Positions 7,121 to 42,933 of a stretch of DNA of 57,692 nt are shown here, in pieces (position 1 is the stretch's first letter; every line of letters starts with the position of its first letter). The notes below the pieces were generated by a model. The model worked only from the letters and a program-made list of their open reading frames with translations. It ran no database searches and had not been told where the DNA came from. The stretch lies in IMG/VR virus record IMGVR_UViG_3300037755_000365, positions 1 through 57,692 of that record, one strand, 5' to 3'. The translations under genes and the position numbers were made by a program. The stretch is from a virus.

Positions 7121-7121
7121 G

Positions 7122-7947: not shown

Positions 7948-7963
7948 TGAGAATCTGCCTCAC

Positions 7964-10211: not shown

Positions 10212-10381
10212 AGGGTCGTGCTCTTTGAGGACAGTCGTCTGATGTACGCAGCGACCGCCTTAGCTGCTTTCCTGTAGGACGCCTGGACACTCGCTTCATC
10301 TGTCGCCCAACCAACCATCCAGCCGGTGTGCCGCTCGATGATACGGGCGACGGTCTGTTGCTGTTTGTCAGTTAGGGTCAC
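10208..10381 (-). CDS. 57-aa hypothetical protein (below ORF-track cutoff)
   Basis: Hand translation VTLTDKQQQTVARIIERHTGW..; stop overlaps next start as GTGA. Confidence 0.3.
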   Translation of the reverse strand: MTLTDKQQQTVARIIERHTGWMVGWATDEASVQASYRKAAKAVAAYIRRLSSKSTTL

Positions 10382-25820: not shown

Positions 25821-26283
25821 GGCAGCAAAAATGGTTGAACGTCTGGAAATTGACTTGACCGATGGGCCTCGCGGCGGAGTGATCGGCAAGATGGTGCCGG
25901 CCGAGAATGGGCGATATGTTGCCCATGATGACTATCAACGGCTTCAGTCCAAGCTCAACGAGGCCAAGCAAAAGATTGCGAAGCTAAGCGATATGCTGGC
26001 CGCTGATCTTGAGATCGTCGGCTATGTGGAGGTGAAGCGCGAGCGCGACGATTTCCGCTCCCGATTGGACGCGGCTCAAAAAACTTGCGGGTTACTGGCC
26101 CAGGAGAGCATGCGGCTTACAGGAAGAAAGCTCGGCGATCCAATCGAGGCTCACGTCGTACGCGAGGACGGCACTCTTGAGCCGGTAACGATCACGGTAG
26201 GTTTGGTAGAGACACGCGAGCAAGATGACACTTACGTCAGCGCCGATCCGGCTGTCATCGAAGCCGACAAGCGCCGCGTTTGA
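25810..26283 (+). CDS. coiled-coil protein, paralogous segment shared with 8086..8589
   Basis: 157 aa; IAKLSDMLAADLEIVGYVEVKRERDD encoded by arm B of the inverted repeat. Confidence 0.55.
   Translation: MGSEAAKMVERLEIDLTDGPRGGVIGKMVPAENGRYVAHDDYQRLQSKLNEAKQKIAKLSDMLAADLEIVGYVEVKRERDDFRSRLDAAQKTCGLLAQESMRLTGRKLGDPIEAHVVREDGTLEPVTITVGLVETREQDDTYVSADPAVIEADKRRV
25975..26052. repeat. 78-bp inverted repeat, arm B (partner 8416..8493)
   Basis: 73/78 identity to reverse complement of arm A. Confidence 0.9.
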
Positions 26284-26297
26284 ATGAGCAAAACCCC

Positions 26298-26325
26298 TTG
26301 AATTCCCTACCCAAACTATTACACT
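26298..26325 (+). promoter_or_regulatory. candidate late promoter (PR-prime-like)
   Basis: TTGAAT-16 nt-TACACT in the 134-nt gap after 26283; followed by hairpin CTCTAGT-tgcc-ACTAGAG and a terminator. Confidence 0.4.
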
Positions 26326-26370
26326 AACGGAATCCCAGCACTCTAGTTGCCACTAGAGCAAGCACACCAG

Positions 26371-26399
26371 AACCCGCCATCGCGCGGGTTTTCGCGTTT
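26371..26399 (+). terminator. intrinsic terminator candidate (tR-prime-like)
   Basis: AACCCGC-catcgc-GCGGGTT followed by TTCGCGTTT; about 70 nt downstream of the candidate promoter and 19 nt before the next start. Confidence 0.55.
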
Positions 26400-26417
26400 A
26401 TAGCCCCGGAGAATTCC

Positions 26418-29075
26418 TTGAAGCGATTCGGTTCGAGCCTTGCGTTCGCCTGCGTGCTATGGGTGGGAATCCCCTTGCCAGACAGCTCCGAAGCGCAGTG
26501 GGTTCGTCCGGACACCAAAGTTGGCACTACGTGGCCCTGCGTAGCTCCCGATGGCGCCGAGTACGACACGCTGTACAAAGGCCCCGGAGCGGCAACGATC
26601 TACTGTAACGGCATGTCCGCTGCTGTTCGGGTGATTGAGGGGATTCTCGGCATGTCGGTAGCCGACGCCGCACTGTCGCTCACGGCGCAACGCTGCGAGG
26701 ACGGACTGATCATCCTCACCGACCCGACGTGCACGCGGGACGACATCGCAACGCTCAGCCTCGACCAGCTCTGCTTACCCTCGATGACCAATATCTCGGC
26801 GGCCTTCGAGGAAAACGTGCGCTCCTGCTGGTCCGGCACTGAGGCAACATCGGCGCTCGACATCTTCATCGACACGGTATCCGGCGACACCGCAGAGGAT
26901 AGCTTCTCGATCGACGGCACGCCGGCCGAGGAAGGCGATAACGTCGTCAACGACAACCTGATGGCCGCGAGCGGCACGCTCCGGTTCCGGGGCGTCGGGG
27001 CAACGCTCACCGTGCAGTCGAGCGGAATCAACTGGGATATCGTCGGAGTGCCGGAGGGCGACCTGAGCCCGCCGACAACCGTACAAGGGTGCATCATCAC
27101 GACCGACGTCGGCTTGATCGAATACACATGCCCTCCTGCAATCGACACGGGCGGCGCAGGCATGTCCTATGTCGAGGTCTACGATGACGCGATGCTCGTC
27201 GAGACGATCAACGTTGCGTCGGGTTTGCAGCTCGATCACTCGTCGCTCGTCGAGTTCGGCACGACCGGATCGCCTATGTACACGCCTGGCGATCTGGAGT
27301 TCGAGATCGAGGATTGCGCGGGCGAGGGACTGCCCGTAACAGGAAACCAAGGCTTCTGCGCGGGCACGCCCCAAGCGGTTTCCGGAGTGTTTTGGGCACA
27401 ATCCTGTACGGCGACTGGCAGCGTGACGACGACCTCCGATTTCTCGTTAACGGGTTGGATGTTCCGAGCGACGAGCAACCCGGCCGACCAGACTGAGCGC
27501 TATATCGCGGCGTGGAAGCAGGTAGACGAAGCACTCACCAACGTTCGCAACTTGTTTCGATGGGTCGTCCAAGATGGCGGCTCGGCGGCTAGCTCGAATC
27601 CCGGTCTGGGCGACTATGACTGCGTAGCGCTGCAACGTATCTCGAACGGAGACTTCCGTGGTCACGCCAAGGATTTCACGGACGAACAGTGGCTACCGCA
27701 AATGACCGACAACGCGCTAGCGTTGCCCGACACGTTGTTCGCCGCGCCGATGTGGCATGCAGCGACCTCTGCCGATTCGGGTGCGCTGGTCTCGTCCACG
27801 ATGACCCAGGCGGGCGTTACCAACGCGCCGTGGTTCTCCGGCAGCTACGAGACGATGGCAGCCGCTGACCTGACTTTCGTCGCGTGCGATGCAGACGATA
27901 ATTGCGCACCTGCGAGCGTGACGTACTCGGCGACGCCCGGAGCACCGCCGATGGCAGGCGCAAAAAACTGGAACCCTGGATTTCAACTGCAAGAGCCGCA
28001 TGTGGGCTGGCTCGCGAATAGTGGCCAATGGTCAGACGTTCAGTCCCGCATTGCCGAGGTGTGCTCGACGACGAATGTAGTTGGCTACCACATCAGATTC
28101 CCGTGGGGTAATTTCGAGCCGACCACGCAAGGTGGTTATACCTTCACGCGAATTGATCAGATGCTGGCAATGCTGGCGGCGTGCGACAAGCAGCTAATCC
28201 TCCAGCTACAGGCGGCCAGCTTTGGCGGCGGCGGCATTTGCTCGCAGGCGGCGCCCCTATATGTCCGCACCGAATCGCAGTACGACGGCGGCGCCATGGT
28301 CGCAAATAGCGGAAACGCTTGTTATGCGCTCGTGTGGAAACAGGCAGTCATGGATCGCTTCATCGCCGCGAAGAGCGCGATCGCGAACCGATATGACGGC
28401 GACCCCAACTTCGAGGGGTTCGTCATCACCGAGACGGCGATTTCGCCGATGCCGGCAGCGGCCGGGTATTCCCCATCGGCACACATCACGCAGCTCAAGC
28501 GGGCCATCGACTCTGCTGCCAGCGAATTCGAACAGACCCAGATCATCGTGTTTTTCAATTATTTGACCGGCTCGAATCCGACGCAGCAAATCGATTTTTT
28601 CCAGCACATCCTCAACGCCGGGGCAATTCATAGCGGCCCGGACACACGCCCTCAAGTGTTGGTCGATTGTCTGTACCAGAGCGGCCCGCCATGTGCGCAC
28701 GACTCGCCCCGCACGAGGAATCCCATCACATCGCGGACTCAAGGCGAGCGCGTCTTGATCGGAGAAACCGGGGGGGTCGATTACCGTGGGCTGATTGGCC
28801 GCATGTGCTCGATACAGGTGAGTTCGCTCGGTACCGGATCGAACAACGGCGGCAACTACATGCCTGAGGAGTTGCTCGATGAGTGCAACACCCTGGCCTC
28901 ACACTACCAAAGCCTGATGTACAAGAACTACCAAACCGGTGGAGAGCCGGACGAGGGAAATTGGAACATGGGCGGGATGCTCGACCCCCGAGGCACCAAG
29001 GACTGGGTAGAAGAGGGCGACTGGATCGTAACGAATACGGACTGCCCGCCTAACGTGACGGCGGGCTGTCTGTGA
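26418..29075 (+). CDS. 885-aa secreted, disulfide-rich protein with C-terminal clan-GH-A-like TIM-barrel glycosidase domain
   Basis: TTG start with GGAG 6 nt upstream; signal-like MKRFGSSLAFACVLWVGIPLPDSSEA; 24 Cys in the mature part; YHIRFPWGNFEPTTQGGYTFTRIDQMLAMLAACDKQLILQL resembles GH42/GH5 beta-strand 2-3 region. Confidence 0.75.
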   Translation: MKRFGSSLAFACVLWVGIPLPDSSEAQWVRPDTKVGTTWPCVAPDGAEYDTLYKGPGAATIYCNGMSAAVRVIEGILGMSVADAALSLTAQRCEDGLIILTDPTCTRDDIATLSLDQLCLPSMTNISAAFEENVRSCWSGTEATSALDIFIDTVSGDTAEDSFSIDGTPAEEGDNVVNDNLMAASGTLRFRGVGATLTVQSSGINWDIVGVPEGDLSPPTTVQGCIITTDVGLIEYTCPPAIDTGGAGMSYVEVYDDAMLVETINVASGLQLDHSSLVEFGTTGSPMYTPGDLEFEIEDCAGEGLPVTGNQGFCAGTPQAVSGVFWAQSCTATGSVTTTSDFSLTGWMFRATSNPADQTERYIAAWKQVDEALTNVRNLFRWVVQDGGSAASSNPGLGDYDCVALQRISNGDFRGHAKDFTDEQWLPQMTDNALALPDTLFAAPMWHAATSADSGALVSSTMTQAGVTNAPWFSGSYETMAAADLTFVACDADDNCAPASVTYSATPGAPPMAGAKNWNPGFQLQEPHVGWLANSGQWSDVQSRIAEVCSTTNVVGYHIRFPWGNFEPTTQGGYTFTRIDQMLAMLAACDKQLILQLQAASFGGGGICSQAAPLYVRTESQYDGGAMVANSGNACYALVWKQAVMDRFIAAKSAIANRYDGDPNFEGFVITETAISPMPAAAGYSPSAHITQLKRAIDSAASEFEQTQIIVFFNYLTGSNPTQQIDFFQHILNAGAIHSGPDTRPQVLVDCLYQSGPPCAHDSPRTRNPITSRTQGERVLIGETGGVDYRGLIGRMCSIQVSSLGTGSNNGGNYMPEELLDECNTLASHYQSLMYKNYQTGGEPDEGNWNMGGMLDPRGTKDWVEEGDWIVTNTDCPPNVTAGCL

Positions 29076-29216
29076 TCAAAACCACGCGTGAGGCGTGCCG
29101 GTATCCGAGTCGATCTCTTCCTGCTCTGGCGGCAGGATGTCCGGTGTCATCCAGATGACGAAGGCGATGATGGCAATCGGTGCGCCGAGGATAGTGAGTA
29201 GCGTGAGTGCAGTCAT
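29076..29216 (-). CDS. 46-aa TM protein on the opposite strand between the two giant genes
   Basis: AAGGAG 6 nt upstream of ATG; MTALTLLTILGAPIAIIAFVIWMTPDILPPEQEEIDSDTGTPHAWF; its ATG and the ATG at 29215 share the palindrome TCATGA. Confidence 0.4.
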   Translation of the reverse strand: MTALTLLTILGAPIAIIAFVIWMTPDILPPEQEEIDSDTGTPHAWF

Positions 29217-31290
29217 GAGGTTCTCCTTGTCGTTTCGCCGGATTCTAGCACTCCTGGTGGTAGGAATTGTGACCTGCTTCACATCTTCCGCCCATGCCGA
29301 GATGACTGTTGGGGCGTCCGACATTCAGTTCGCCGCCACTCACGACGGCTCGTTTGCGCTCTCGGCGATGCCGACCCATGCAGCGGGCGACCTCATCGTG
29401 ACAATCCCGGTCGGGTCAAACGACAAATTCAGTGGCGGCGCTGACGGCGAGACGATTGGGACTGCCATTTCCGGCCACACCGCGCTGCGGGCCAATTTCC
29501 AATCGACCGACACGAATGTTGATCTCGTGGCCGGTGCTCACTGCCGGGTCGCGCTCTCCAGTTCCGAGTCCCCGCCAGAAATTACGACTACATACGCCGA
29601 CAACAATGCGGACGTCGTTGGCATGGGCGTGTTCATCGTGCAGACCGATGGATCGTTCGACTGCGGCAATCTGCCGATTGATATGTCGGCGGGTCTCGCA
29701 GAGGATGAGTTCGGGCACATCGACCACGAGGCGCTAGACGTGACGGGCGACAACCGTCTCGTGATTGCCGTGGGCGTCACCGCCACGACGTACACCGCCG
29801 CTGCGGCACCGACGTTTGCTGACATGATGTGGGCCGAGCTCGACACGCCCGCTGGGATTGATCTGGCTCTGCTGGTTGCCTACGACTTGCAGACAACGGA
29901 AACGGATATTTCGGCGGCCATCGACACGAATGCTTTCGAGCTGACGAGCGAGGCCAACGCGGCTAAGCCCGAGTTGAGCTTCATCTTCAGCATCGGCGAC
30001 GAGGCGGAAACAGCTCCGACAATCACCAGCGCTCTCACCTGCGGCACTCGTGACGCCGATGGAATGAATTGCGCCGTCACGGTAGACGAGGACTCGACGG
30101 GCCACATGGTGGCTTGTCGGGTGAATTCTGCAACACCGACCGATGCGCAGCTCAAAGTAGGCGACTGCACAGGGGATGAGGATGCGCTCGAATACGAGAC
30201 CGCATCTCTCACGGCTACGGTCTCATGGAGTGCGCATTTCACAGGCTTGGCATCTCGTCCGGCCTACGATATCTACTTCATCGCCACGAATGCCGGTGGG
30301 GATTCGGCTCAAGACGCGAACGTAGACGAGGAACGCGGCTGTGCAACGGTGTTCGGCGGTGACTGCGACATCTTCCCGCTCACGTCTTTGGCAATGGCCG
30401 GCTGGGCCGCACTGTCGAACATGGCGGTATTCGGCGATGCAGCCGATGAAACCTTCTGGGGCACGACGACCGAGATAGCAGCCGGTGATTGGGTCGAGAT
30501 CGCGACAGTAGGTAGCATCATCGGCTGCGAGTTCACGCACACGACCACGGGCGATTTCACCGTTGCAGGGGTAGGCGGTGTCGGTGATTGTCCCTCGGCC
30601 AAGGAGAGCGTTCGATTCGGGATTATGAGCGCGACCACGGGCAACCTGTTTGCTTCTGCTGGTGCTACTTATCCCGGCTCATACGAGGGCCAGTACGACT
30701 TTCTCTACTTGAACAATGGTCCGCCGACCTGCCCGGAAGGCTCTGATCATCCGTTCCAAACAGGCGAAGCGTACAGCCGGGATTTCAGCCTAGAGATCAG
30801 CGATCCTGACGGAGACGCGATTGATCTCGCCGTGTTCACCGGAGCGGTCATCAACGGCCTTGCCCATAGTGGTACTGGTAATTTGCTCTACTCCGGCACC
30901 GTCGACGACATGGACGAGGACGAGACCGGGAGTGAGATTACCAGACGATTCGACGATGGGACGGGCGATCACTGTTTCGTTGCCGATGTCGAGTGGCCGA
31001 TCGACACGATTACCGTGCCTGACCTCGTTGGAAGTGACACGGATGAGGCCATTACACTTGAGCTAGCTGCTTTCCCGTTTCGGTCAGAGCCCACACTCGA
31101 CACGAGCGAGACGGACTACAGCGACACAGTGCCCGCGGGCGACATCATCAGCCAAGACCCTGCTGCCAGTACCGAGGTCGCGTTCGATCAGGAGCTGAGC
31201 GGGGTGGTTAGCTTGGGTGAGGAACCGCCACCTTTGGAGGGCGGCAGGGGCGGCAGAAGACCGTTTGGTTTGGGACTAGGGGTGAACTGA
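29215..31290 (+). CDS. 691-aa secreted acidic protein with cadherin/He_PIG-like and C-terminal PASTA-like segments
   Basis: Signal peptide MRFSLSFRRILALLVVGIVTCFTSSAHA; 12 Cys in mature part; ISDPDGDAIDLAVFTGAVINGLAHSGTGNLLYSGTV; VPDLVGSDTDEAI..YSDTVPAGDIISQDPAASTEV..VVSLG. Confidence 0.7.
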   Translation: MRFSLSFRRILALLVVGIVTCFTSSAHAEMTVGASDIQFAATHDGSFALSAMPTHAAGDLIVTIPVGSNDKFSGGADGETIGTAISGHTALRANFQSTDTNVDLVAGAHCRVALSSSESPPEITTTYADNNADVVGMGVFIVQTDGSFDCGNLPIDMSAGLAEDEFGHIDHEALDVTGDNRLVIAVGVTATTYTAAAAPTFADMMWAELDTPAGIDLALLVAYDLQTTETDISAAIDTNAFELTSEANAAKPELSFIFSIGDEAETAPTITSALTCGTRDADGMNCAVTVDEDSTGHMVACRVNSATPTDAQLKVGDCTGDEDALEYETASLTATVSWSAHFTGLASRPAYDIYFIATNAGGDSAQDANVDEERGCATVFGGDCDIFPLTSLAMAGWAALSNMAVFGDAADETFWGTTTEIAAGDWVEIATVGSIIGCEFTHTTTGDFTVAGVGGVGDCPSAKESVRFGIMSATTGNLFASAGATYPGSYEGQYDFLYLNNGPPTCPEGSDHPFQTGEAYSRDFSLEISDPDGDAIDLAVFTGAVINGLAHSGTGNLLYSGTVDDMDEDETGSEITRRFDDGTGDHCFVADVEWPIDTITVPDLVGSDTDEAITLELAAFPFRSEPTLDTSETDYSDTVPAGDIISQDPAASTEVAFDQELSGVVSLGEEPPPLEGGRGGRRPFGLGLGVN

Positions 31291-31628
31291 TGAAAAATAG
31301 GTCGGCCATCATTCTTGTGCTTGTGTTGGCATCAGGCTTCCTCTATGCGCAAGGTCGGAGCACTCAAAATATCGGCCAAGTCGGCGAGTTTTCGATTACG
31401 AACTTCCCTATTCTCGGCGCATTGGCCGCGCAAAGTGACACAGTGAATTTCACTGCTCCTAGCGCACTTAGGGTCAACGCGGATGGTGCGGTTACTGTTA
31501 CGTGCTGGGGCAATCCAGACGCGAACTCGATCACTTTGACATTGGCAGCTGGGGAATTTGTCCCGTGCCAAGTCAAGCGGCTTTGGGATAGCGGAACGGA
31601 CGCAATCACGATTCATCGTTTCTGGTGA
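31290..31628 (+). CDS. 112-aa secreted beta-rich protein
   Basis: Signal peptide MKNRSAIILVLVLASGFLYA; 2 Cys; ATGA coupling with upstream stop. Confidence 0.6.
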   Translation: MKNRSAIILVLVLASGFLYAQGRSTQNIGQVGEFSITNFPILGALAAQSDTVNFTAPSALRVNADGAVTVTCWGNPDANSITLTLAAGEFVPCQVKRLWDSGTDAITIHRFW

Positions 31629-32257
31629 GCATACTGGTTGCAACGCCATGCTACGGCGGGCAGCTCCGGGTTGAGACGTTCAACTCACTCCTCGGCATCG
31701 CTCAGCTTTGTGGGGCTCACGGAATCGAGCTAGACATGCTTTTGACTGGCAATGAGTCAGCCATTACTAGGGGGCGAAGCAATCTTGCGGCTACGTTCCT
31801 GCGGACAGACCGCAAGACGCTCGCGATGATCGATGCCGACATTCAGATTGAGCCTGAGGACTTTCTAAGGCTCGTAGATCTCGACAAGCCGATCAGGGGT
31901 GCGGCGGTGTGCCTCAAGACGCAGGACCACTCAGAAAGCCTCTCGGTGTACCGAGATGGCAAGCGCGTCACGCGGGCCGAGATGCCGGCCGAGCCTTTCG
32001 AGGTAGACTTCATCGGCGGTGCGGTCATGTTCATCGAGCGGGAAGTGCTCGAGAGGCTATCGGCCATTCCAGAGCTTAGCTACACGGACCCGATCAACGG
32101 CGATGGGGCGCATATTTTCATCGAACGGATCGTTGATGGCACTTTGCTCAGCGAGGACTATTCGCTGTGCAGTCTCGCGCGAGAGCACGGGTTTTCCGTT
32201 TGGTGCGATCCGAGCATCAAGGTCACTCATTTCGGGCAAGGGAGTTGGCGAGCATGA
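31625..32257 (+). CDS. GT-A-fold glycosyltransferase
   Basis: GTGA coupling; SILVATPCYGG .. LAMIDADIQIEPEDF (DxD). Confidence 0.65.
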   Translation: MSILVATPCYGGQLRVETFNSLLGIAQLCGAHGIELDMLLTGNESAITRGRSNLAATFLRTDRKTLAMIDADIQIEPEDFLRLVDLDKPIRGAAVCLKTQDHSESLSVYRDGKRVTRAEMPAEPFEVDFIGGAVMFIEREVLERLSAIPELSYTDPINGDGAHIFIERIVDGTLLSEDYSLCSLAREHGFSVWCDPSIKVTHFGQGSWRA

Positions 32258-32574
32258 AAGAGTTAGGAACCTTAAGGCTCCGAGAGATGGCGCTGACGCA
32301 GGCCGAAAAGCAGCACGAAGAGATGGTGCAGCCTCACGTTCCGAGCTACCCCTACGGCCTCCGTTTGAGCCTGGGAGAGGAAGAGCTGAAGAAGCTCGGC
32401 ATTGACATGCCGAACCTGGACGATACTTTCCTCGTGATCGGAGTCGGCAAGGTCAAGGAAGTGTCGGAGCGGGAATACGACGACCACACACACAAGCACG
32501 TCGAGATCCAGCTAGAAAAGCTGACGCTCGAGCCGCAGGACGTAGTGAAGCTCGGCAAGGTGGAGGCTGCCTAA
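32254..32574 (+). CDS. conserved phage hypothetical protein
   Basis: ATG at 32254 (ATGA coupling); YPYGLRLSLGEEELKKLGI motif. Confidence 0.5.
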   Translation: MKELGTLRLREMALTQAEKQHEEMVQPHVPSYPYGLRLSLGEEELKKLGIDMPNLDDTFLVIGVGKVKEVSEREYDDHTHKHVEIQLEKLTLEPQDVVKLGKVEAA

Positions 32575-32627
32575 GCCATTGAAACCTGGTAGGTAGGGTA
32601 GCCAAGCCCGGAGGGAGATCGCCGCTC

Positions 32628-32849
32628 TTACGGCTTCTCAGGCTGCCGTTTCCTGCCAGCGAGGCATTCGAGCGTGAATTGGGCGTGATACGGAATCTTG
32701 TGAGTACCAGATAGCCAGAAACGCATCGTTCTCCGATGAACGCCGATAGCCGCCGCTGCGGAGTTCCCTGAAAGCCCAGCGCGCTTTATTAGTTCCCGAA
32801 GATACTTCGGGTCTGGGTTGTACTTGGACCGGTCTGGCATCAAACCCAT
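32628..32849 (-). CDS. XRE-type HTH protein
   Basis: LRELIKRAGLSGNSAAAAIGVHRRTMRFWLSG; lower GC than surroundings by eye. Confidence 0.6.
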   Translation of the reverse strand: MGLMPDRSKYNPDPKYLRELIKRAGLSGNSAAAAIGVHRRTMRFWLSGTHKIPYHAQFTLECLAGRKRQPEKP

Positions 32850-33301
32850 AGGTAGGCTCCTCCGGTGATAACGCCGATGATGACGCTAGCCCCGACATTG
32901 TATTTGATCATCATTCTGGCAACGGCGCGGTGATCTCTGGAACTAGGTACCTTTGCTCTGATTTCTCGCACTGCCGAAGCGTTCAGCTTCCCTGTAGACC
33001 GTAATGATGTGGCCATATCGTTGGAGTTTTCCCAGTGTGTGCCCTCGACCAAATGGTCTGGGTTAATGCAAGGACGGTTGTGGCAAAGATGCCTGATAAC
33101 AGGTTTTGACGGGATGCCATTGGCGATAAAATATGCGAGTCGATGGGCAAGGTAAGTGCGCCTTTGGTAGGAGATGATCGAGTAGCCGCTACTGGTTGCT
33201 TTGTTGGTCAACCGCCAGCAACCGTTTGGCAGCTTTTCTGTGAGAGCATTGAATTTCGAGACGAAGCAAGGATCTGAAGCTGGTAGCGCGTAGTTCTTCA
33301 T
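32840..33301 (-). CDS. HNH_3-type homing endonuclease with C-terminal HTH
   Basis: YLAHRLAYFIANG..IRHLCHNRPCINPDHLVEGTHWENSNDM. Confidence 0.75.
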   Translation of the reverse strand: MKNYALPASDPCFVSKFNALTEKLPNGCWRLTNKATSSGYSIISYQRRTYLAHRLAYFIANGIPSKPVIRHLCHNRPCINPDHLVEGTHWENSNDMATSLRSTGKLNASAVREIRAKVPSSRDHRAVARMMIKYNVGASVIIGVITGGAYLWV

Positions 33302-33393
33302 TGTGGTGAAGATTATACACCATCGGGCAGAAAGTTCGAGCGGTTATGCGCATAGGCAGTCAGCGAGGAAACGGGTAGCAGGATCAGCAGGTT

Positions 33394-33762
33394 ATGGCAG
33401 CTCGACTCAATCCGCGTCATCAAACGATGGTCCGGCAGAAGATCCAAGCCTCGGCGATCTTGAACAAGATGGAAGCGCACATCTTCGAGAAGTGCTCCTG
33501 TTACCACGAGGACGAAGAGAAGCAACGCCGCTGCTCGGTCTCCGACCCGAGCGGAGCCAAGATCAGCATGTACTTACTCAGTCAGTCGATCGGCAATCCT
33601 CCGCAAGAGATCAACGGAGAAGTCACGGTAACAGCTAACGTCGTGGTCCAAGCTCTCGTCGCCAGGCTAGGCCCAGAGCGAGCAAGGCAAGCACTCGAGA
33701 TCCAAGCTCCTGGCCTGGTAGCTCTACTGCAGGCTCCAATCGAGGCGGAGTACAGCGAATGA
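33394..33762 (+). CDS. hypothetical protein (weak small-terminase-like candidate)
   Basis: 122-aa ORF; helical N-terminus MVRQKIQASAILNKMEAHIF; assignment speculative. Confidence 0.5.
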   Translation: MAARLNPRHQTMVRQKIQASAILNKMEAHIFEKCSCYHEDEEKQRRCSVSDPSGAKISMYLLSQSIGNPPQEINGEVTVTANVVVQALVARLGPERARQALEIQAPGLVALLQAPIEAEYSE

Positions 33763-34019
33763 ACGAGCTCGATACACTCTTACGCCAGCAAGTAGCAGCG
33801 ATACAGCGTCTCCGAGCGGCCGAGGAACACGAGAAGCTCGCCATCGAGCAACTGAGGGATGCTGAGCATCAAGCGAATATTGCCAACGAGGCCGTGCAAG
33901 CATTCCTTGCGGCGAGAACTGAAGCCATAGCGGAGAACTTATGCTCCGACCCGTTCGCTCAAGACATGGATTCGGCGCGAGGCCAAGCCAGGTTTCATGC
34001 TGGCATCTGGGAAAGCTAG
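33759..34019 (+). CDS. coiled-coil hypothetical protein
   Basis: 86 aa, ATGA coupling. Confidence 0.5.
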   Translation: MNELDTLLRQQVAAIQRLRAAEEHEKLAIEQLRDAEHQANIANEAVQAFLAARTEAIAENLCSDPFAQDMDSARGQARFHAGIWES

Positions 34020-34541: not shown

Positions 34542-34763
34542 ATGGACAAAAAAGCCTTGCGCGAGGCATTGAAGAAGTTCGGGATTAGGCAGGCGGAGCT
34601 CGCGTCCCGGCTGGGCGTTGCGGAAGAGACTGTATCCAGGTGGGCAAACGGGCACCAAAAGGTGCCGGGGTACTGCGAGGCGTATCTGAGCGCGCTCGAT
34701 GAGCAGGGCCGTCTCCGTGGGGTTCTTTCTGACATCGCCGCTCTAGCAGAGCCGGAGCGATGA
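34542..34763 (+). CDS. XRE-type HTH protein
   Basis: LKKFGIRQAELASRLGVAEETVSRWANG. Confidence 0.65.
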   Translation: MDKKALREALKKFGIRQAELASRLGVAEETVSRWANGHQKVPGYCEAYLSALDEQGRLRGVLSDIAALAEPER

Positions 34764-35650
34764 GCGGATACGTTGTCATTTCTCGCCACGGAAGCCGCAA
34801 GAACGGCGAGGCGACGTGGCTATGTCGTTGCGGTTGCGGCACCGAGCGAATTATCCGGACTAGCCGGATGAGTCCTGGGAAGCGGTGCATTCGATGCACA
34901 CGCGAAGCCGCGGCGCGCTCGTCAATAGACTTAACCGGTAGGGTGTTCGGGTCGAAGACTGTCACAGCTAAAGCCGGAGAGGATCTTTGGCTTGCTGGGT
35001 GCACGTGTGGTTCGGAAGCGGTATATAGGACGTCCACTGTCCGTGCCGTAGGAACCGACCACTGCATGGACTGTAGGCCGATGGCTCGGCCGCGAAATGG
35101 TGGATACACGAAAGGCAAGGCGGGCGTTGACAGGACCGGGCAACGGTACGGGCACTTGATCGTGCTCAGGCAGGACGAGACTTTCAGAGATTGCGTCCGC
35201 TGGCTGTGCCGGTGTGACTGCGGGAATGTTGTTTCGAAGAGCACGAACGCCTTCTTGAAGAAGGGGCTGAGATTTTGCGGCGCGGCGTGTCCTTTCTGGG
35301 TGCGACCATCTGGCAAAGACCACCACCGCTATAGGCACGGGATGTCCGGTACGCGCGAGTATCAGTCTCGTTATCGCGGGAAGCGTGGCGGCAGAAGAGC
35401 CGGATCGCTACCTCGTGGCTACCTGACTGTCTTATGGGGCCGGCAAGGTGGTCGATGCGCCTGTTGTCGGACCAAGATCCCTCGCGCGTCTGAAAGAACC
35501 GGCCAAGTACACTTGGACCATATTGTTCCGATTGCTGCTGGTGGTGAGCACGAGCAGTACAACGTGCAGTTGCTTTGCTCGACATGCAATGTGAGGAAAT
35601 CGTTTAAAGATCCGCTCAAGTGGCGTCAGCAGCATGGATACCTGCTATGA
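34760..35650 (+). CDS. HNH endonuclease with three N-terminal zinc-ribbon repeats
   Basis: WLCRCGCG..CIRC, LAGCTCGS..CMDC, WLCRCDCGN..FCGAAC; C-terminal HLDHIVPIAAGGEHEQYNVQLLCSTCNVRK. Confidence 0.75.
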   Translation: MSGYVVISRHGSRKNGEATWLCRCGCGTERIIRTSRMSPGKRCIRCTREAAARSSIDLTGRVFGSKTVTAKAGEDLWLAGCTCGSEAVYRTSTVRAVGTDHCMDCRPMARPRNGGYTKGKAGVDRTGQRYGHLIVLRQDETFRDCVRWLCRCDCGNVVSKSTNAFLKKGLRFCGAACPFWVRPSGKDHHRYRHGMSGTREYQSRYRGKRGGRRAGSLPRGYLTVLWGRQGGRCACCRTKIPRASERTGQVHLDHIVPIAAGGEHEQYNVQLLCSTCNVRKSFKDPLKWRQQHGYLL

Positions 35651-37602: not shown

Positions 37603-37772
37603 GCTGTCCGTCAGGCAAGCAGGGATACCCGACGACGAAGGCAGCCAGAACGGCGTTGAACCGCTGCATGCGGCGCAAAGGACGACGTAGGCACGAGAGT
37701 TCGTTCTATAGGTGCGAGTGCGGAGACTACCATCTCACGAGCGAGCTTCCGTCCGATACGCGATTCAGGTGA
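37539..37772 (+). CDS. small zinc-binding protein
   Basis: YRCECGDYHLTS motif; overlaps upstream gene by 64 nt. Confidence 0.4.
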   Translation: MFQESRESDERSNPRVARGAIGCPSGKQGYPTTKAARTALNRCMRRKGRRRHESSFYRCECGDYHLTSELPSDTRFR

Positions 37773-38368
37773 AGGTCACGGCCGTGATCCCGGTGGGTCC
37801 GGGTCACAAGCAGTATGCGGAGGATGCGGCAGGGTCCGTCTATCGCGCATGGGCGAATTCTAAAGGGCCGTTCGAAGAACTTAACGTCGTCATTATTGAC
37901 GACACGTTGGGGAAGAGAGGTCGTTCAGCTTCGAGGAATCACGGCATCAGCCGTAATCCTTCGGACTGGTACTTTTTGCTCGACGCAGACGACGAGATGC
38001 TCAGCGACGCTTTTCAAAACGTCGCCATTGAGTCTGCGGCGACGTTTGGTGCGGTGTGTCTCGACGGCGTGATTGCCAAAGAGAACATCTACCCATTGAC
38101 TCGAGAGATGCTGTTCGCTCACGGAGCGAAGGGCACCTTGAGCATGGGCTGCTTCGTGCGAGGTGATGTAGCAAGAGCAACGCCGTTCGATGAGACGTTG
38201 GAAACAGGAGAAGATTTCGATTTCTACATGAGGTTGCCGGATTTCGTGAAGATAGATCGACCGCTGGTGTCGATTGGCTACCGGAAGCCGAGTGCCGGAG
38301 GCCCTAAGGGCTACAAAGACATCAAGTGGAGAGAGATTTGCTGGAGCGTCATTGACCGCTATCGCTGA
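37769..38368 (+). CDS. GT2-family glycosyltransferase
   Basis: GTGA coupling; VTAVIPVGPG..VVIIDDTLGKRGRSASRN..LLDADDEM. Confidence 0.75.
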   Translation: MKVTAVIPVGPGHKQYAEDAAGSVYRAWANSKGPFEELNVVIIDDTLGKRGRSASRNHGISRNPSDWYFLLDADDEMLSDAFQNVAIESAATFGAVCLDGVIAKENIYPLTREMLFAHGAKGTLSMGCFVRGDVARATPFDETLETGEDFDFYMRLPDFVKIDRPLVSIGYRKPSAGGPKGYKDIKWREICWSVIDRYR

Positions 38369-38828
38369 GCACACGCTGCCGGCTCCACGATCTCTGATTC
38401 ATTGCCAAACAGTTCTCGATATCGGTGCCGGTATCCGGCCGATGCGGTGGTACGTGCCAGAAAGGCACATTTGCGCCGATCCACACGAGCCGTATGTAGA
38501 AGTCTTGAGGCAGTTTGGATACGAGGCGCATCACAAGAACGCGATCGAAGCATTGAGCCTTATTGAGGCCGAGGCGATCTATTTTCTCGACGTGATCGAG
38601 CACATGGACAGGGATCTTGGAACGCGGGTCATCGAGCTCGCGTTGTCAAAACCGCACAAGCAGATCGTGATTTACACACCGATCGGATTCGTCGAGCAGC
38701 GTGAAGATTGCTGGGGGCTCGGCGGGGAGTATTGGCAGACGCATCGGTCTGGATGGATGCCCGCGGATTTCCCAGGCTGGACGATAGAGACATTCAAGCG
38801 GGAAGGATTTTTCGCCATACATGAGTAA
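38352..38828 (+). CDS. class I SAM-dependent methyltransferase
   Basis: Motif I VLDIGAGIRP; YFLDVIEHM; TTG start at 38352 assumed (track ORF opens at 38274). Confidence 0.65.
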   Translation: MTAIAEHTLPAPRSLIHCQTVLDIGAGIRPMRWYVPERHICADPHEPYVEVLRQFGYEAHHKNAIEALSLIEAEAIYFLDVIEHMDRDLGTRVIELALSKPHKQIVIYTPIGFVEQREDCWGLGGEYWQTHRSGWMPADFPGWTIETFKREGFFAIHE

Positions 38829-39867
38829 GTACAGCCAGCTCAAGCCCGCGTTCCATTTGGACCGGATTGTGCAGCTTCGCCAAGGTAAGAATCCGGTTCC
38901 CGTTCACGTGCAACTGATTTTGAGCGACCTGTGCCAGCAGTCGTGCAGTTGGTGCGCATACCGCATGGACACTGGACTTTCTACTGAATTGTTTTGGACG
39001 GAGACGACGCACAACCCGAATCGAAAGATCGAGACATCGAAGGCGCGCGAGATTCTTGACGATTGCGCTTCGATGGGGGTCAAAGCGATTCAATTCACTG
39101 GAGGTGGAGAGCCTACTGTTCATCCAGAACATCGTGAATTATTCGCATACGCTCAGGACTTAGGGCTTGATACGAGCCTGGTCACGAACGGCGTTCGGTT
39201 GGATGTCGAGAGTGACAGCACCCTTCGGATGAAGTGGATTCGCGTCAGCATCGATGCGGGACGCGAGGAAACCTATTGCAAGATTCGCAACGTCAACGCG
39301 ACGCATTGGCGGAAGGCGTGGGCAAACGTCGAGCGATTGGCGAAGCGCTTCGAGGGTGCGCTCGGGGTCGGGTTTGTCGTAGCGCCGGAGAGCTTCAAAG
39401 AGATTGGCGAATGCGCTTCAAGGTGCAAATATGCCGGCGTTTCTAACATGCGAGTCGGGGCCGTGTTTTCAGAGCAAGGAATCGGCTTCTACGGAGGCTT
39501 GATTCCCGAGATCGTCGAGGCGATCAACGAGGCTAAGGCAAAATACGACGGCGACGGGTTCGAGATCATCGACCTGTTCGGGAGACGGCTCGGAGATTTG
39601 GAAAACGGTAGCCCGACCGATCCATTCTGCGGCTACCAGCACATGACGATGTACATCGGTGGAGATTTGAACGTCTACCGATGTTGCAACACGTCTTACA
39701 CGAAGGCTGGTTTGCTCGGGAGCCTCAAGGAGACGAGCCTCAAAGAGCTGTTCGGAACGCTCGACTACTCGTTCGATGCAAGGCAGTGTCGCTACTGCCA
39801 GTTTCTCGGACAAAACGAAGCGATTTCCGCGCTGATTAAAGAGCCAGAGCACGTAAATTTCGTATGA
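38821..39867 (+). CDS. radical SAM enzyme with C-terminal auxiliary Cys cluster
   Basis: C38-x3-C42-x2-C45 (CQQSCSWCAY), FTGGGEPTV, C-terminal FCGYQ..YRCCNTS..CRYCQF. Confidence 0.85.
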   Translation: MSKYSQLKPAFHLDRIVQLRQGKNPVPVHVQLILSDLCQQSCSWCAYRMDTGLSTELFWTETTHNPNRKIETSKAREILDDCASMGVKAIQFTGGGEPTVHPEHRELFAYAQDLGLDTSLVTNGVRLDVESDSTLRMKWIRVSIDAGREETYCKIRNVNATHWRKAWANVERLAKRFEGALGVGFVVAPESFKEIGECASRCKYAGVSNMRVGAVFSEQGIGFYGGLIPEIVEAINEAKAKYDGDGFEIIDLFGRRLGDLENGSPTDPFCGYQHMTMYIGGDLNVYRCCNTSYTKAGLLGSLKETSLKELFGTLDYSFDARQCRYCQFLGQNEAISALIKEPEHVNFV

Positions 39868-40391
39868 CCACGGCGCAATTCGCATCGATGTCCGACGTGG
39901 ATGCGGACAACTTCATGCCTATTTCCGAGGTTCAGCCGGTCAGAACCTTGCTCGCGAGAATGGTCGGGCATGGAACGGTGGTCGATATCGGTTGCGGCAA
40001 GGGCGACGAAGTGTCTGACCTATTCGACCCTGAAAAGTATCTCGGAATCGATTGCTCGGAGGCGTTGATACGAATAGCAAGGCACCGAAACCCTGGATTC
40101 AGATTCGAAACGATCCAGGGCCTGGATCTGAACGGTCACTGGGACTACGGGATCATCAAGGCTGTCCTGGAGCACGTGCCGCCTGACGAGGCAGTCGCGA
40201 TTTACGAGAACGCGAGGCGCGTATGCGACGTGCTGCTGGTTGCCTGGCACACGGAACCTGGGAGAGAAAATCTCGCCTGGTACGACGGGGAGATAGGGAG
40301 GATGCAGCAGAACCGTCACGACCGATCAAAGTTTTCAGGGATAGAGCATCGTGAAGTGTGCGGGAAGCATGTGGTCTGGACGGTTATTTGA
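39864..40391 (+). CDS. class I SAM-dependent methyltransferase
   Basis: VVDIGCGKGDEV..LGIDCSEALI..IKAVLEHVPPDEA; ATGA coupling. Confidence 0.75.
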   Translation: MTTAQFASMSDVDADNFMPISEVQPVRTLLARMVGHGTVVDIGCGKGDEVSDLFDPEKYLGIDCSEALIRIARHRNPGFRFETIQGLDLNGHWDYGIIKAVLEHVPPDEAVAIYENARRVCDVLLVAWHTEPGRENLAWYDGEIGRMQQNRHDRSKFSGIEHREVCGKHVVWTVI

Positions 40392-40959
40392 GGATTTCTT
40401 CCCTGTCTCGGATTCGATTGCACTCGTCACTACGGGTAAGAAGCTAGACGCGCTTGATCGAATAGAGACGGTCGGCTACTCCGTTCGCGGCAGTAAGGTC
40501 GAGATCGGGGAACGTCTTGCTGTTCTAACGCATGGGACCGGTTTGAGGCTTGGTGGTTTGTTTAACGGTCGGCTCGTGTACTCGGAGATAGGGAAAGGAA
40601 TTGTTGGCGAACCCAACAACGCGCCGGCTAGTGCGCATCAACCGTTCGTAAAGGACGGCTCTGTTTATTACACGGACGGTTGGCCGCAAGTTCGCATCTA
40701 CAGAAACGGCGAAGTGTTCTTGGATCACTTCAACGACATGGAGCAAGTCGGTAATCCGTGTTGGGTTGGCGATTCGATGTATTTCGAGGCGCGTGCCGAC
40801 GACGACCCGAGAAGACCCGATCTTTGGGAGATTTGGCGCTATGACGGGAATCTCGATTTCGTGTGCATGGGAGCAAACCCGTCCTATTGGAACGGTAGGC
40901 TTTTTGTAGGCGAATGGAATGGGCGAAATTTCGACTACCGATGCGCAACGATTGATTGA
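40369..40959 (+). CDS. beta-propeller-like hypothetical protein
   Basis: Repetitive beta-rich sequence (YFEARADDDPRRPDLWEIWRYDG); start ATG 40369 or GTG 40351. Confidence 0.5.
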   Translation: MWSGRLFEDFFPVSDSIALVTTGKKLDALDRIETVGYSVRGSKVEIGERLAVLTHGTGLRLGGLFNGRLVYSEIGKGIVGEPNNAPASAHQPFVKDGSVYYTDGWPQVRIYRNGEVFLDHFNDMEQVGNPCWVGDSMYFEARADDDPRRPDLWEIWRYDGNLDFVCMGANPSYWNGRLFVGEWNGRNFDYRCATID

Positions 40960-41509
40960 TGCGAAGGCTTACCCGCCGACGCATACTTACGATCTAGCGA
41001 CGCTCATTCCCAGATACCCGTTGAATCATCGGCTCTCGATTCTGTTGCGGGTTTGCCCGGATATGTTCAAGGCAAATCGGTTTCTGGACGTCGGGTGCTC
41101 GAAAGGGTTCTTTGCGCTCAAGGCGGCGAAAGAAAGCAGTTCTGTTCTTGCCATAGATCCAGACGAGGAAGCGCTCAAGTCTTGGGAAAGCGTTTGTCCA
41201 AAGAACGTGACGCAGAAAGTTGGCACGTTCAAAGACGTGTCTGGCGAGTTCGACATGGTGTGGATCGGCAACGGCCACCACTACCTATACAGAGAAGACC
41301 GGAATTACGTCGATCGCCTCAAGCGAATCGCAACCGATAGGGTGCTGATCGAGGGGCCGACTGGGCCGAAGCGCTTTGAGATGCGGAATTTCGGGCCGCA
41401 CCAAACCGAGGTGGAATTGTTGGAATCGATGCAGGACTTCTATCTTGTGAGGCGGGCAGAGTCAGAAACGAAAGGCAGGGCTGTTTGGCTGTTCAAGACG
41501 CGCTCGTGA
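40919..41509 (+). CDS. class I SAM-dependent methyltransferase
   Basis: FLDVGCSKGFFAL..VLAIDPDEEAL..FDMVWIGNGHHY. Confidence 0.7.
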   Translation: MGEISTTDAQRLIDAKAYPPTHTYDLATLIPRYPLNHRLSILLRVCPDMFKANRFLDVGCSKGFFALKAAKESSSVLAIDPDEEALKSWESVCPKNVTQKVGTFKDVSGEFDMVWIGNGHHYLYREDRNYVDRLKRIATDRVLIEGPTGPKRFEMRNFGPHQTEVELLESMQDFYLVRRAESETKGRAVWLFKTRS

Positions 41510-41988
41510 CGTTGCCGCACAACCGTTACGGAGAATATTTGGAGCACGTGTATACGAAGATGGCCGTTCATGTTCCACCAGACTCGACGGTGCTCGAGAT
41601 CGGGGCTCGTCATGATCGTGGCGTGATCTCCAAGCGCGTGATCCCGCACAAGACGTTTTTGACCGTGGACAGGAATTCTCGGAGAGGTGACATGACGGCC
41701 GACGTGCTGTACGAGGAAATGCAAGCCGGCGTGATTCTATCGACGTGCATTTTGCACCATACGCCGGAGAGCTTGATTCCTAAACTGCTGGATAACCTCG
41801 TGGCTCCGCTGCTGATGTTCTCTGGGCCGAACGTTGAGGCCATGCCGAAGTTGTTTGGTGACCATCGGTGGCACATCGAGATACCGAAATTCGTGGGATG
41901 GCTGGAAGAGCGAGGCTACACAGTCACGTGGGAGCGCGTAGGGCTGTCTGAGCCGCTTTGCGAAGTGCTGGTGCTAGCCAAGAGATGA
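41506..41988 (+). CDS. methyltransferase-fold protein (divergent)
   Basis: GTGA coupling; VLEIGARHD..FLTVDRN..ILSTCILHHTPE. Confidence 0.5.
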   Translation: MTLPHNRYGEYLEHVYTKMAVHVPPDSTVLEIGARHDRGVISKRVIPHKTFLTVDRNSRRGDMTADVLYEEMQAGVILSTCILHHTPESLIPKLLDNLVAPLLMFSGPNVEAMPKLFGDHRWHIEIPKFVGWLEERGYTVTWERVGLSEPLCEVLVLAKR

Positions 41989-42662
41989 TCTCGGTCGTCA
42001 TGCCGTTCTGGTGCCGTCAGGAGGCGCTGGACAGGGCATTTGCTATCTACGGCGAGCTATACAGAGATTTGCCGATCGAGTTCTCGGTCTGCGACGACGG
42101 CTCGGACCCGCAAGTCTCGATGGCTAAGGCCAGTCATCCGTTTACGGTGACGCTGTTGCCGAAAAAGGCTAGAGCATTGAATCCGTGCGTGCCGATCAAT
42201 CGCGCGGTGGAGGCTTCTACCGGCGACGTGATCGTGCTGACGAATCCAGAGATCGTTCACACGGAACGGACGCTCGAAAAGATGCTCGAGCTCCTGACTG
42301 GCGATGACGATTACGTGATGGCGTCGTGTCTCGACTCGTCCGGGCAATGGCTTGCGGGGTCAAAGGTGCGATACGACCAGAACGGGAGGCTCCCCGTTCC
42401 AGATGGGGGTCATTTCCATTTCTGCTCGATGTTCCATCGGTCGCTGTGGGAGAAGGCTGGCGGATTCGACGAGGACTATCGAAATGGCCAGGCGTGCGAC
42501 GACAACGACTGGCTGTGGAGGCTTCATAGAGCCGGAGCGGTATTCAAGCTCTGCGAGAGCGTGGTGACGCACTACCGCTCTCAACTGAAATGGAACTTGC
42601 CGCACAACAGAGAGCTTTTCATGGCGAAGTGGGGATTGAATGGGCGCCAAGCCACGGCTTAG
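41985..42662 (+). CDS. GT2-family glycosyltransferase
   Basis: ATGA coupling; MISVVMPFW..FSVCDDGSDP..GDVIVLTNPEIVH. Confidence 0.75.
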   Translation: MISVVMPFWCRQEALDRAFAIYGELYRDLPIEFSVCDDGSDPQVSMAKASHPFTVTLLPKKARALNPCVPINRAVEASTGDVIVLTNPEIVHTERTLEKMLELLTGDDDYVMASCLDSSGQWLAGSKVRYDQNGRLPVPDGGHFHFCSMFHRSLWEKAGGFDEDYRNGQACDDNDWLWRLHRAGAVFKLCESVVTHYRSQLKWNLPHNRELFMAKWGLNGRQATA

Positions 42663-42933
42663 GTGGACGGGTGAGTCTTGGCATGGACTCGCACCCGTAA
42701 AGAACCATTCGTCTTACAAATCTCCTGAAACGCTCGCTGCCGAAGTGTCTCGGATGATTATTGAGAACGGATTGACCGATGTCGTGATGATCGGTCAGGC
42801 ACCGGGACGCGACGGGGCAGCCAAGTGTTATCGCTGGATGACGAGCGGCACGCTGCTTTGGTACGTGGAGCTGCTGAGATTCAACGCGGTTCACGGACGA
42901 TTTCCCTACGAAAGCAACGGCGGCCCGATCTGA
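42640..42933 (+). CDS. hypothetical protein
   Basis: 97-aa ORF abutting next start. Confidence 0.45.
   Translation: MGAKPRLRWTGESWHGLAPVKNHSSYKSPETLAAEVSRMIIENGLTDVVMIGQAPGRDGAAKCYRWMTSGTLLWYVELLRFNAVHGRFPYESNGGPI

Follow-up and report, generated by a model that had tools for sequence, protein, structure and literature searches.

Three adjacent genes encode proteins with predicted signal peptides

The viral contig IMGVR_UViG_3300037755_000365 from IMG/VR, analysed here over its complete length of 57,692 bp (the window), derives from a tailed, temperate-type phage. It carries three consecutive genes, denoted P1, P2 and P3 (Table 1), whose products each begin with a predicted Sec-type signal peptide. 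An earlier reading made from the letters of the DNA alone (the sequence-only reading) had singled out this set, correctly put at ∼ 5.2 kb of 57.7 kb or 9% of the genome, as a probable exported glycan-degrading/adhesin set, with action independent of the virion among its candidate roles. Both its sequence and its predicted fold show P3 to be homologous to the base of the capsid head spike of the Rhodobacter capsulatus gene transfer agent (RcGTA; Rcc01079) and of phage Carin-1, and P2, encoded just upstream, ends in a peptide like the one that holds the RcGTA head fibre in its base. New here are what appear to be spike parts, and an enzyme domain known from the structural gene modules of other phages, in exported and disulfide-bearing form.

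Signal peptides were scored with a heuristic that demands a positively charged n-region, an uncharged hydrophobic core of 8–18 residues and small residues at positions −3 and −1. It accepts P1, P2 and P3 and passes 0 of the 70 other genes of the window, so that the three Sec-type signal peptides claimed in the sequence-only reading stand; they are also conserved in orthologues. All orthologues and exported-looking neighbours tested pass bar one, a P2-like protein of locus L004 that had been entered from the wrong start codon, and the control P0158, a P3 homologue without a signal peptide, is correctly rejected.

An automatic gene caller starts P1 at M66 and P2 at M30, losing both signal peptides, and clips the P2 orthologues of loci L003 and L001 likewise; P3 is retained with its full 112 residues. 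Since two of the three proteins were stripped in this way, such features are likely to be under-counted in the annotation of metagenomic phages. We take the longer starts of P1 and P2 as real because the orthologues keep the same signal-peptide starts. The P1 orthologues begin at the same place with ATG (L001, MRRFAIAAIAALIALPAIG/QW; L003, MKRLKSALLGAALLFALPAIG/QW; L004, MKRFTSSLALALVLWIGIPLPDSSEA/QW), and over the 28 codons of the P1 signal-peptide region the window and L004 differ by nine synonymous and four conservative changes, which argues that this region is translated and under purifying selection. The predicted P2 cleavage site reads AHA/E in the window, AQA/D in L003 (..IIAQA/DV) and AMA/D in L001 (..YSAMA/DI), and in both orthologues the upstream frame is open, its hydrophobic core leading up to an A-x-A site with an acidic residue behind it. 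We considered that the P2 signal peptide might be a by-product of the opposite-strand gene whose Shine–Dalgarno sequence overlaps the first P2 codons. This was rejected, because the frame is open and the signal-peptide properties and the A-x-A/acidic site are found in three orthologues.

Glutamine occupies position +1 of the proposed cleavage site in P1 of the window, L001, L003 and L004 (QW). Seven P3 homologues (P0154–P0157 and those of L007, L009 and L013) differ in the sequence of their signal peptides, and all of them have Gln as the first residue after the proposed site; the heuristic itself placed the cut of the P3 homologues two or more residues later.

The predicted mature proteins contain 24 (P1), 12 (P2) and two (P3) cysteines, the even numbers that the sequence-only reading had counted. 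The P1 family agrees with this pattern. Among members with a signal peptide 62 of 74 have an even mature cysteine count (binomial p = 1.4e-9), versus 29 of 64 among those without (binomial p 0.81), and the median cysteine content is 1.78% (n = 74) versus 1.04% (n = 64), respectively (Mann–Whitney p = 7e-7). Of the indirect evidence gathered here for working signal peptides, this is the strongest. Portal, major capsid and scaffold-like proteins of the window, as well as its large open reading frames 53300–54670 and 54660–57302, are free of cysteine. From these sequence features we infer that P1–P3 are exported via Sec, cleaved by signal peptidase I and disulfide-folded outside the cytoplasm.

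P3 resembles capsid head-spike bases

P3 scores above the cut-off of the NCBIfam model NF048002, 'spike base protein, RCAP_Rcc01079 family' (E 1.6e-7, 31.5 bits versus a cut-off of 28), with residues 55–109 aligned to profile positions 30–82 of 85, and it also matches phrog_12296, 'tail fiber protein'. A phmmer search of the PDB found chain 8cjz_h, 'Spike Base Protein' (E 0.002; P3 residues 36–112 to chain residues 16–92). This chain comprises 92 residues, exactly as many as mature P3. When the AlphaFold2 model of P3 was compared by Foldseek with 350,542 PDB chains, only two matches were obtained at E ≤ 0.001, namely 8cjz_h (Carin-1; E 4.5e-5, template-modelling (TM) score 0.72) and 6tb9_A1 (RcGTA Rcc01079; E 8.9e-4, TM score 0.60, root-mean-square deviation 2.6); the next match lay at > 0.05.

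The cysteine pair of P3 recurs in six of the seven homologues that bear a signal peptide, the protein of L013 having none. P0158 (86 aa), the homologue without a signal peptide, has no cysteine, nor do the two solved spike bases show any in the portions that align. The start of P0158, MARSTQ, matches that of mature P3, QGRSTQ. Sequence, fold, mature length and the P0158-like N-terminus thus together indicate that P3 is a complete spike base preceded by an additional export signal.

P2 and the pairing of its tail with the P3-type gene

Mature P2 is strongly acidic (109 Asp and Glu versus 19 Lys and Arg). Acidity as a sign of a halophilic host was rejected, since other phage proteins are not unusually acidic. 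Only one full-length close homologue was found, P0005, with 62% identity. Outside the PASTA region P2 has no match in Pfam, PHROG or the PDB, and the He_PIG/cadherin-like segment (PF05345) proposed in the sequence-only reading proved to be a resemblance by eye, Pfam giving no match to it at E ≤ 1. The C-terminal PASTA domain proposed there is borne out by a Pfam match above the cut-off (Table 1), and the segment aligns with the PASTA repeats of PknB.

In RcGTA a base pentamer sits on each capsid penton, held by its N-termini, and the head fibre, one molecule, is attached via residues 2–10 (I-A-L-G-L-G-L-G-L), which are arranged as a five-point star within the pentamer pockets (PMC7296036). The C-terminus of P2 (...GGRGGRRPFGLGLGVN) ends in the similar peptide RRPFGLGLGVN. 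By analogy with RcGTA, this tail may plug into a P3 pentamer.

Open frames in all six reading frames of the window and of loci L001–L006 were searched for the tail motif. In this set a C-terminal hydrophobic-Gly tail occurs only in the protein encoded just upstream of a P3-type gene. Tail and P3-type base gene co-occur in six independent loci, which are the window, L004 (..RRNIGIGIRIGL), L006 (..RRIGIGLGL), L007 (..GRKVGIGLGLGL), L008/L009 (..RTRLGLGLE) and L013 (..NSVGIGVRIGL). The tail follows a PASTA-like segment in most of the six. Its carrier in L006, a protein of 123 aa, has a PASTA domain between signal peptide and tail and nothing else. L003 has neither a P3 gene nor a tail on its P2.

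Locus L006 is a 63-kb phage contig that encodes, at 2913–10330, seven consecutive signal-peptide proteins: 322 aa (fn3), 484 aa (He_PIG), 399, 256 and 427 aa, the 123-aa PASTA protein and, as the last, the P3 homologue. FGIR-type tails are present in the 484-aa protein and in a 117-aa protein without signal peptide (3917–4270); they read ..MIGFGIRPVS and ..TRFGIRTVE. These tails hint at several different fibres that share one base.

P1 combines β-sandwiches with a (β/α)8 barrel

Searches of Pfam, PHROGs, NCBIfam and the PDB sequences returned nothing for P1. A word-indexed search found three relatives only; when a profile was searched exhaustively, the family came to 1539 representatives at E ≤ 1e-3, 168 of them at E ≤ 1e-30. 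Most family members align from about residue 70–95 to the end, or over residues 500–885 only, and the clusters that were looked up are metagenomic 'hypothetical protein' entries throughout.

The AlphaFold2 model of P1, built from 137 sequences, has a mean predicted local distance difference test (pLDDT) score of 76.7, with residues 1–180 poorly modelled. In the N-terminal module, C41, C63 and the stretch TIYCNGM are invariant in the alignment, and pLDDT is ∼ 65–80 at residues 31–70. For the central β-sandwich region, relatives of P1 give weak Pfam matches to DUF1349 (concanavalin-like). The C-terminal barrel is modelled with pLDDT mostly > 90 and shows eight alternating strands and helices. 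Foldseek against the PDB retrieves the glycoside hydrolase (GH) families GH5, GH14 (β-amylase), GH35 and GH42 at E ∼ 1e-7, with target-normalised TM scores of 0.4–0.55 and 9–14% identity, and one match in BFVD, from Erwinia phage phiEaP8, bears the annotation 'putative cellulase or glycoside hydrolase'. P1 is probably a soluble multi-domain enzyme of glycanase type.

The sequence-only reading had placed a TIM barrel of clan GH-A type at this end of P1. The fold is supported by the model and its structural matches; the clan is not. In clan GH-A the acid/base Glu lies in an Asn-Glu motif at the end of β4 and the nucleophile Glu at the end of β7. Glu672 of P1 is at the end of β4 (strand 665–672) and is present in 129 of 135 relatives. 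Before it stands Thr671 in P1, and relatives have E, G or S at this position; a conserved Asn is not seen there. At β7 (strand 795–799) the nucleophile position is taken by Ser798, with Glu in 68 of 132 relatives, and the alternative Glu of a Q-x-P-E-[LM]-G-G motif is also missing from P1 of the window (IQVSSLGTG). Because the β7 nucleophile position is a Ser, membership of clan GH-A is not demonstrable. The most constant acidic residues of the family are E567, E672 and D742 (after β6). All three are kept in the window, and their conservation suggests a different catalytic arrangement.

Two relatives of P1 with a signal peptide, P0009 and P0010, could be placed. Their contigs, of 54 and 44 kb, are of phage origin, and both proteins are encoded at the same place, downstream of the early genes. 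The possibility that P1 relatives are cellular proteins was rejected on these grounds. In L011 the terminase and portal genes follow immediately; the contig of L013 ends before any would be visible. Twelve IMG/VR viral contigs also encode a P1-type barrel, and in several of them the barrel protein has no signal peptide and sits among structural genes (L016, between the major head and the tail protein; L017, beside a tail-fibre protein; L020, after the portal). Phages thus encode P1-type barrels of two kinds, those that lie among structural genes and lack a signal peptide and those that have one. A tblastn search of PLSDB plasmids with the P1 barrel found nothing, and P0010 gave two weak matches only, to hypothetical proteins of enterobacterial plasmids.

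Start of the operon and neighbouring genes

A hairpin followed by a T-run lies 20–45 nt upstream of the P1 start in the window, L001 and L003. In the window (26373–26399) it is a candidate read-through terminator heading the late operon. It was left unflagged by a consensus terminator scan because the T-run is interrupted, and a scan of the plus strand for a σ70-like promoter found none. It is plausible that P1–P3 are the first genes of the late transcript.

Between P1 and P2 a small conserved gene is encoded on the opposite strand, with counterparts in L003 (9718–9915, minus strand) and L001 (4311–4499, minus strand) and a product of 46–65 aa across loci. It shares a CATG palindrome with the start of P2, a layout that is the same in L003 and L001. 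Upstream of it on the minus strand is an AAGGAG sequence within the first P2 codons, and a terminator-like site for it is found on the minus strand at 29097–29083. Its product has no Pfam match. The gene may be expressed apart from the late operon.

P3 is followed by a gene that the sequence-only reading took for a GT-A glycosyltransferase. Its product matches phrog_1574 (unknown function) at E 4.7e-24 and reaches 26.8 bits against the Pfam family Glyco_tranf_2_3, borderline to the cut-off of 27. A DxD motif was looked for, and 'DAD' is present. The next gene encodes a capsid decoration protein like gp10 of epsilon15 (Pfam PF21628, Gp10-like, E 4e-9; PDB 3j40_N, gp10, E 1.5e-6). It lies ∼ 15 kb upstream of the major capsid gene; its counterpart in L004 is in the head module. 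The trio of P3, glycosyltransferase-like and gp10-like genes recurs in the same order in L006, where six more signal-peptide proteins precede it. In L004, L007 and L009 the module is immediately followed by the genes for small terminase, large terminase and portal.

Three HNH-type endonuclease genes are found in the genome (23251–23787, 32840–33301 on the minus strand, and 34760–35650), the second of them just past the P3, glycosyltransferase-like and gp10-like genes.

Table 1. Positions of the P1–P3 genes, their predicted parts and other features of the window.
Feature	Position	Strand	Remarks
O-antigen/O-acetyltransferase-like gene	2644–3738	−	phrog_3333, E 3e-39; between tail region and lysis genes
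Probable lysis cassette	3716–5395		lysozyme-like gene, then four small proteins with a hydrophobic membrane-like segment each
Primase-helicase, HNH endonuclease, RecA-dependent nuclease, NinB	21.3–24.8 kb		
Terminator-like hairpin	26373–26399	+	GC hairpin CCCGC-6 nt-GCGGG then TTTTCGCGTTT; read from sequence
P1	26418–29075	+	885 aa; TTG start, GGAG 6 nt upstream
P1 signal peptide (predicted)	26418–26495	+	MKRFGSSLAFACVLWVGIPLPDSSEA/QW
P1 N-terminal Cys-containing module	26496–26717	+	residues 27–100; close phage orthologues only
P1 central β-sandwich domains (predicted)	26958–27944	+	residues ∼ 181–509; all-β in AlphaFold2, pLDDT mostly 70–95
P1 (β/α)8 barrel (predicted)	27945–29075	+	residues ∼ 510–885; ends in CPxN...C motif
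Small conserved gene	29076–29216	−	46 aa; between P1 and P2; one N-terminal membrane helix, acidic tail
P2	29215–31290	+	691 aa; starts at M41 of a 731-aa open frame
P2 signal peptide (predicted)	29215–29298	+	MRFSLSFRRILALLVVGIVTCFTSSAHA/EM
P2 body	29299–31008	+	12 Cys, no recognisable fold
P2 PASTA domain	31009–31194	+	residues 599–660; PF03793, E 1.5e-7, 31.7 bits versus cut-off 23.2
P2 C-terminal tail	31255–31287	+	RRPFGLGLGVN; basic pair and (hydrophobic-Gly)n repeat; proposed plug of a P3 pentamer
P3	31290–31628	+	112 aa; 1-nt overlap with P2 stop as TGATG
P3 signal peptide (predicted)	31290–31349	+	MKNRSAIILVLVLASGFLYA/QG
Mature P3 (predicted)	31350–31628	+	92 aa; spike-base jellyroll, one Cys pair C72/C93
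Glycosyltransferase-like gene	31625–32257	+	no signal peptide; overlaps P3 end by 4 nt
epsilon15 gp10-like capsid decoration ('staple') gene	32254–32574	+	no signal peptide
Glycosyltransferase-like genes, three	37712–38368, 41958–42662, 42934–43530		in sugar/modification block just upstream of terminase
Radical-SAM (S-adenosylmethionine) gene	38821–39867		same block (37712–43530)
SAM-methyltransferase genes, two	39864–40391, 40919–41509		same block (37712–43530)
Large terminase	43455–44993		
Portal-like gene	45306–47174		
Major capsid protein	47939–49024		

The window is a complete contig with an identical stretch of 30 bp at 1–30 and 57663–57692, which suggests the circular assembly of a complete genome. 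In the probable lysis cassette the lysozyme-like gene matches the C-terminal part of phrog_1259, 'baseplate hub subunit and tail lysozyme', and near these genes no lipobox-type outer spanin was found. The O-antigen/O-acetyltransferase-like gene looks like a lysogenic-conversion gene. The target of the modification block upstream of the terminase could be a host glycan, virion proteins or DNA.

No close relative of the window was found among isolated phages (megablast of 26000–34000 against INPHARED), tblastn searches of the INPHARED phages with P1, P2 and P3 gave no match, and genome scans of GTDB for P1 and for P3 returned nothing, so that no host could be assigned. No tRNA gene was found in the window. 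The major capsid protein shares < 40% identity with its counterparts in isolated phages, and its nearest solved structures are those of none of Carin-1, RcGTA and epsilon15.

A possible assembly pathway and its alternatives

We propose that transcription passes through the hairpin upstream of P1 and that P1, P2 and P3 would be exported and then oxidised in the periplasm. Five mature P3 jellyrolls would form a base, and the RRxFGLGLGV tail of one P2 would fill its hydrophobic pockets. Once the holin/endolysin cassette (3716–5395) opens the envelope, the exported proteins would encounter finished capsids. The freed N-terminal arms of P3 (mature N-terminus Gln21) could then dock on the capsid pentons, bringing P2 with them, while P1 would remain free and work on the host surface or on an envelope glycan. 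The core of this proposal, that is export, a P2–P3 spike complex and a glycan-directed P1 with the docking left aside, we regard as probable. The whole chain, with docking on capsids at lysis and a free P1, is more tentative and in our judgement falls somewhat below an even chance. In its general form, the proposal says that a group of temperate tailed phages finishes the virion surface outside the cytoplasm, an exported, disulfide-folded P3 together with P2 being snapped onto the five-fold vertices of finished capsids only on opening of the membrane by the holin or on cell burst; this we put forward more guardedly still.

We lean towards docking for two reasons. Many lineages have kept a five-fold adaptor along with its plug, a pairing that is difficult to account for if there is no five-fold partner, and mature P3 retains the length of a virion base and the P0158-like N-terminus, with capsid genes adjoining. 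A five-fold adaptor would seem to have no evident use except on a five-fold vertex. Independence of the virion was the weakest part of the sequence-only reading, given a spike-base homologue in P3, a plug-type tail on P2 and a gp10-like staple gene two genes downstream. That the set is partly made of virion-decoration parts makes the signal peptides more surprising.

Several observations weigh against this proposal. Exported proteins and capsids are in separate compartments until lysis, we know of no tailed phage that adds periplasm-matured proteins to its capsid, and a full-text literature search found no precedent for tailed-phage virion proteins with signal peptides. The signal peptides were scored with a purpose-written heuristic and not with SignalP. 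The model of P3 is of moderate quality (mean pLDDT 66.7, core 70–86) and leaves the N-terminal arm unmodelled. The proposed plug is at the C-terminus of P2, whereas that of RcGTA is at the N-terminus of the fibre; the tail of the window has only four alternating hydrophobic residues (F, L, L, V), and P2 has no detectable similarity to Rcc01080, of which the PDB models searched contain only residues 2–10. No feature of P1 was found that would attach it to P3 or to the capsid, and since P1 lacks the nucleophile of clan GH-A it may bind sugar rather than cleave it. Finally, the word periplasm presumes a diderm host, which is suggested by NinB, by the O-antigen acetylase-like gene and by the proteobacterial homes of the known spike bases.

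The alternative that survives best is that exported P1–P3 work off the virion, in the periplasm or after release by lysis. As a glycan-degrading and adhesin set they could remodel capsule, extracellular polysaccharide or lipopolysaccharide, destroy or mask receptors on debris and neighbouring cells, or exclude superinfection, and P3 would only multimerise or cap P2. The evidence for export (signal peptides and cysteine pattern) serves this alternative equally, and it needs no way of joining periplasmic proteins to capsids, for which no mechanism is known. The genome has many genes for surface glycans (O-antigen acetyltransferase-like, four glycosyltransferase-like, one radical-SAM and two methyltransferase genes), P1 has no visible attachment feature, and PASTA domains of the PknB and PBP2x families bind peptidoglycan fragments. 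Such free action leaves unexplained, however, why a five-fold vertex adaptor and its plug were kept together in six lineages, why P3 has the length of a virion base and a P0158-like N-terminus, and why the genes adjoin those for the capsid staple, terminase and portal. We consider it a real, though minority, possibility.

If instead the N-termini were not working export signals, P1–P3 would remain in the cytoplasm and be built into the virion in the usual way, as head spikes and a depolymerase. The homology of P3 to a virion protein, the P1-family barrels in structural modules of other phages and the preference of the gene caller for P1 and P2 starts past the signal peptides all fit this view. 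However, P3 has no alternative start, its ATG being coupled to the P2 stop codon, and the open frames of the signal-peptide regions are translated and held by purifying selection. The cysteine pattern follows the signal peptide both in the P3 homologues (six of seven versus none in P0158) and in the P1 family (62/74 versus 29/64 with even counts), and Gln stands at +1 of the proposed site in all divergent P3 homologues and in four P1 orthologues. Purely cytoplasmic assembly thus appears improbable.

Least credible by far is an accessory lysis or cell-wall module in which P1 is a secreted wall or envelope-glycan hydrolase and P2 its PASTA-bearing, peptidoglycan-targeting partner: the place of the module immediately ahead of the terminase genes, small and large, in L004, L007, L009 and L011, the PASTA domain, the location of the lambda and P22 lysis genes between late regulator and terminase genes and the existence of endolysins with signal peptides speak for it, but the folds closest to P1 act on β- or α-glycans, to our knowledge no peptidoglycan hydrolase has a barrel of the P1 type, and no lysis protein known resembles this set, in which a spike base accompanies proteins as large as 885 and 691 aa that contain 24 and 12 cysteines. 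That P1–P3 are themselves the lysis cassette was rejected, as separate lysozyme-like and membrane-protein genes are present at 3716–5395; these genes also speak against an accessory lysis role.

Decoration of capsids after lysis would, if true, be new in kind, and specialists would not expect it. If spike parts do pass through the periplasm, the assembly of tailed phages would not be strictly cytoplasmic and decoration could be finished in the lysate; a phage could thereby display oxidatively folded glycan-binding modules that are unable to form in the reducing cytoplasm. Even if the proteins are free of the virion, the analysis defines a conserved gene pair of PASTA-plus-plug protein and exported spike base, and a large unannotated (β/α)8 family (> 1,500 clusters at 50% identity) of candidate polysaccharide-active enzymes.

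Comparison with known systems

The closest parallel to P2 and P3 is the head spike of RcGTA (base Rcc01079, PDB 6TB9) and of Carin-1 (PDB 8CJZ), the two best fold matches of P3 and members of the family that it matches. The RcGTA spike consists of an Rcc01079 pentamer and an Rcc01080 head fibre (Westbye 2016; Bardy 2020, PMC7296036). P2 has a hydrophobic-Gly peptide like the IALGLGLGL of the fibre, and fibre and base genes are adjacent in both systems. Unlike the RcGTA and Carin-1 proteins, P2 and P3 have cleavable-looking Sec signal peptides and cysteine pairs. The N-termini of the solved bases bind the capsid; P3 has a predicted 20-residue signal peptide before the arm, and the solved members have none. 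The proposed P2 plug is C-terminal, after the PASTA domain, whereas that of Rcc01080 is N-terminal.

P1 resembles phage polysaccharide depolymerases, both the tailspike and tail-fibre enzymes and the soluble forms set free at lysis, in being a large multi-domain phage protein with a glycosidase-like domain. It differs from them in its (β/α)8 barrel, which replaces the usual trimeric β-helix, and in its Sec signal peptide and 24 cysteines; it also has no recognisable virion-anchor domain, and its family has no Pfam, NCBIfam or PHROG model. With clan GH-A (GH5, GH35, GH42) and with GH14 it shares the barrel, a W..LE..G.Y motif after β2 and the near-invariant β4 Glu. Unlike clan GH-A it lacks the Asn before the β4 Glu and the β7 nucleophile Glu.

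Other phage proteins that leave the cytoplasm via Sec or by signal-arrest-release (SAR), such as endolysins with signal peptides, SAR endolysins and morons of the Stx and Bor type, likewise carry phage-encoded N-terminal export signals, and some are encoded just after the late regulator. These are small lysis enzymes, toxins and lipoproteins, none of them homologous to a capsid decoration protein and none in a run of three (in L006, seven) genes for exported, Cys-rich modular proteins. With the PknB-type kinases and class B penicillin-binding proteins P2 shares a PASTA domain that scores above the gathering threshold; it differs in having a single copy, directly followed by the proposed plug tail. 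In all cases known to us the PASTA domain is extracytoplasmic.

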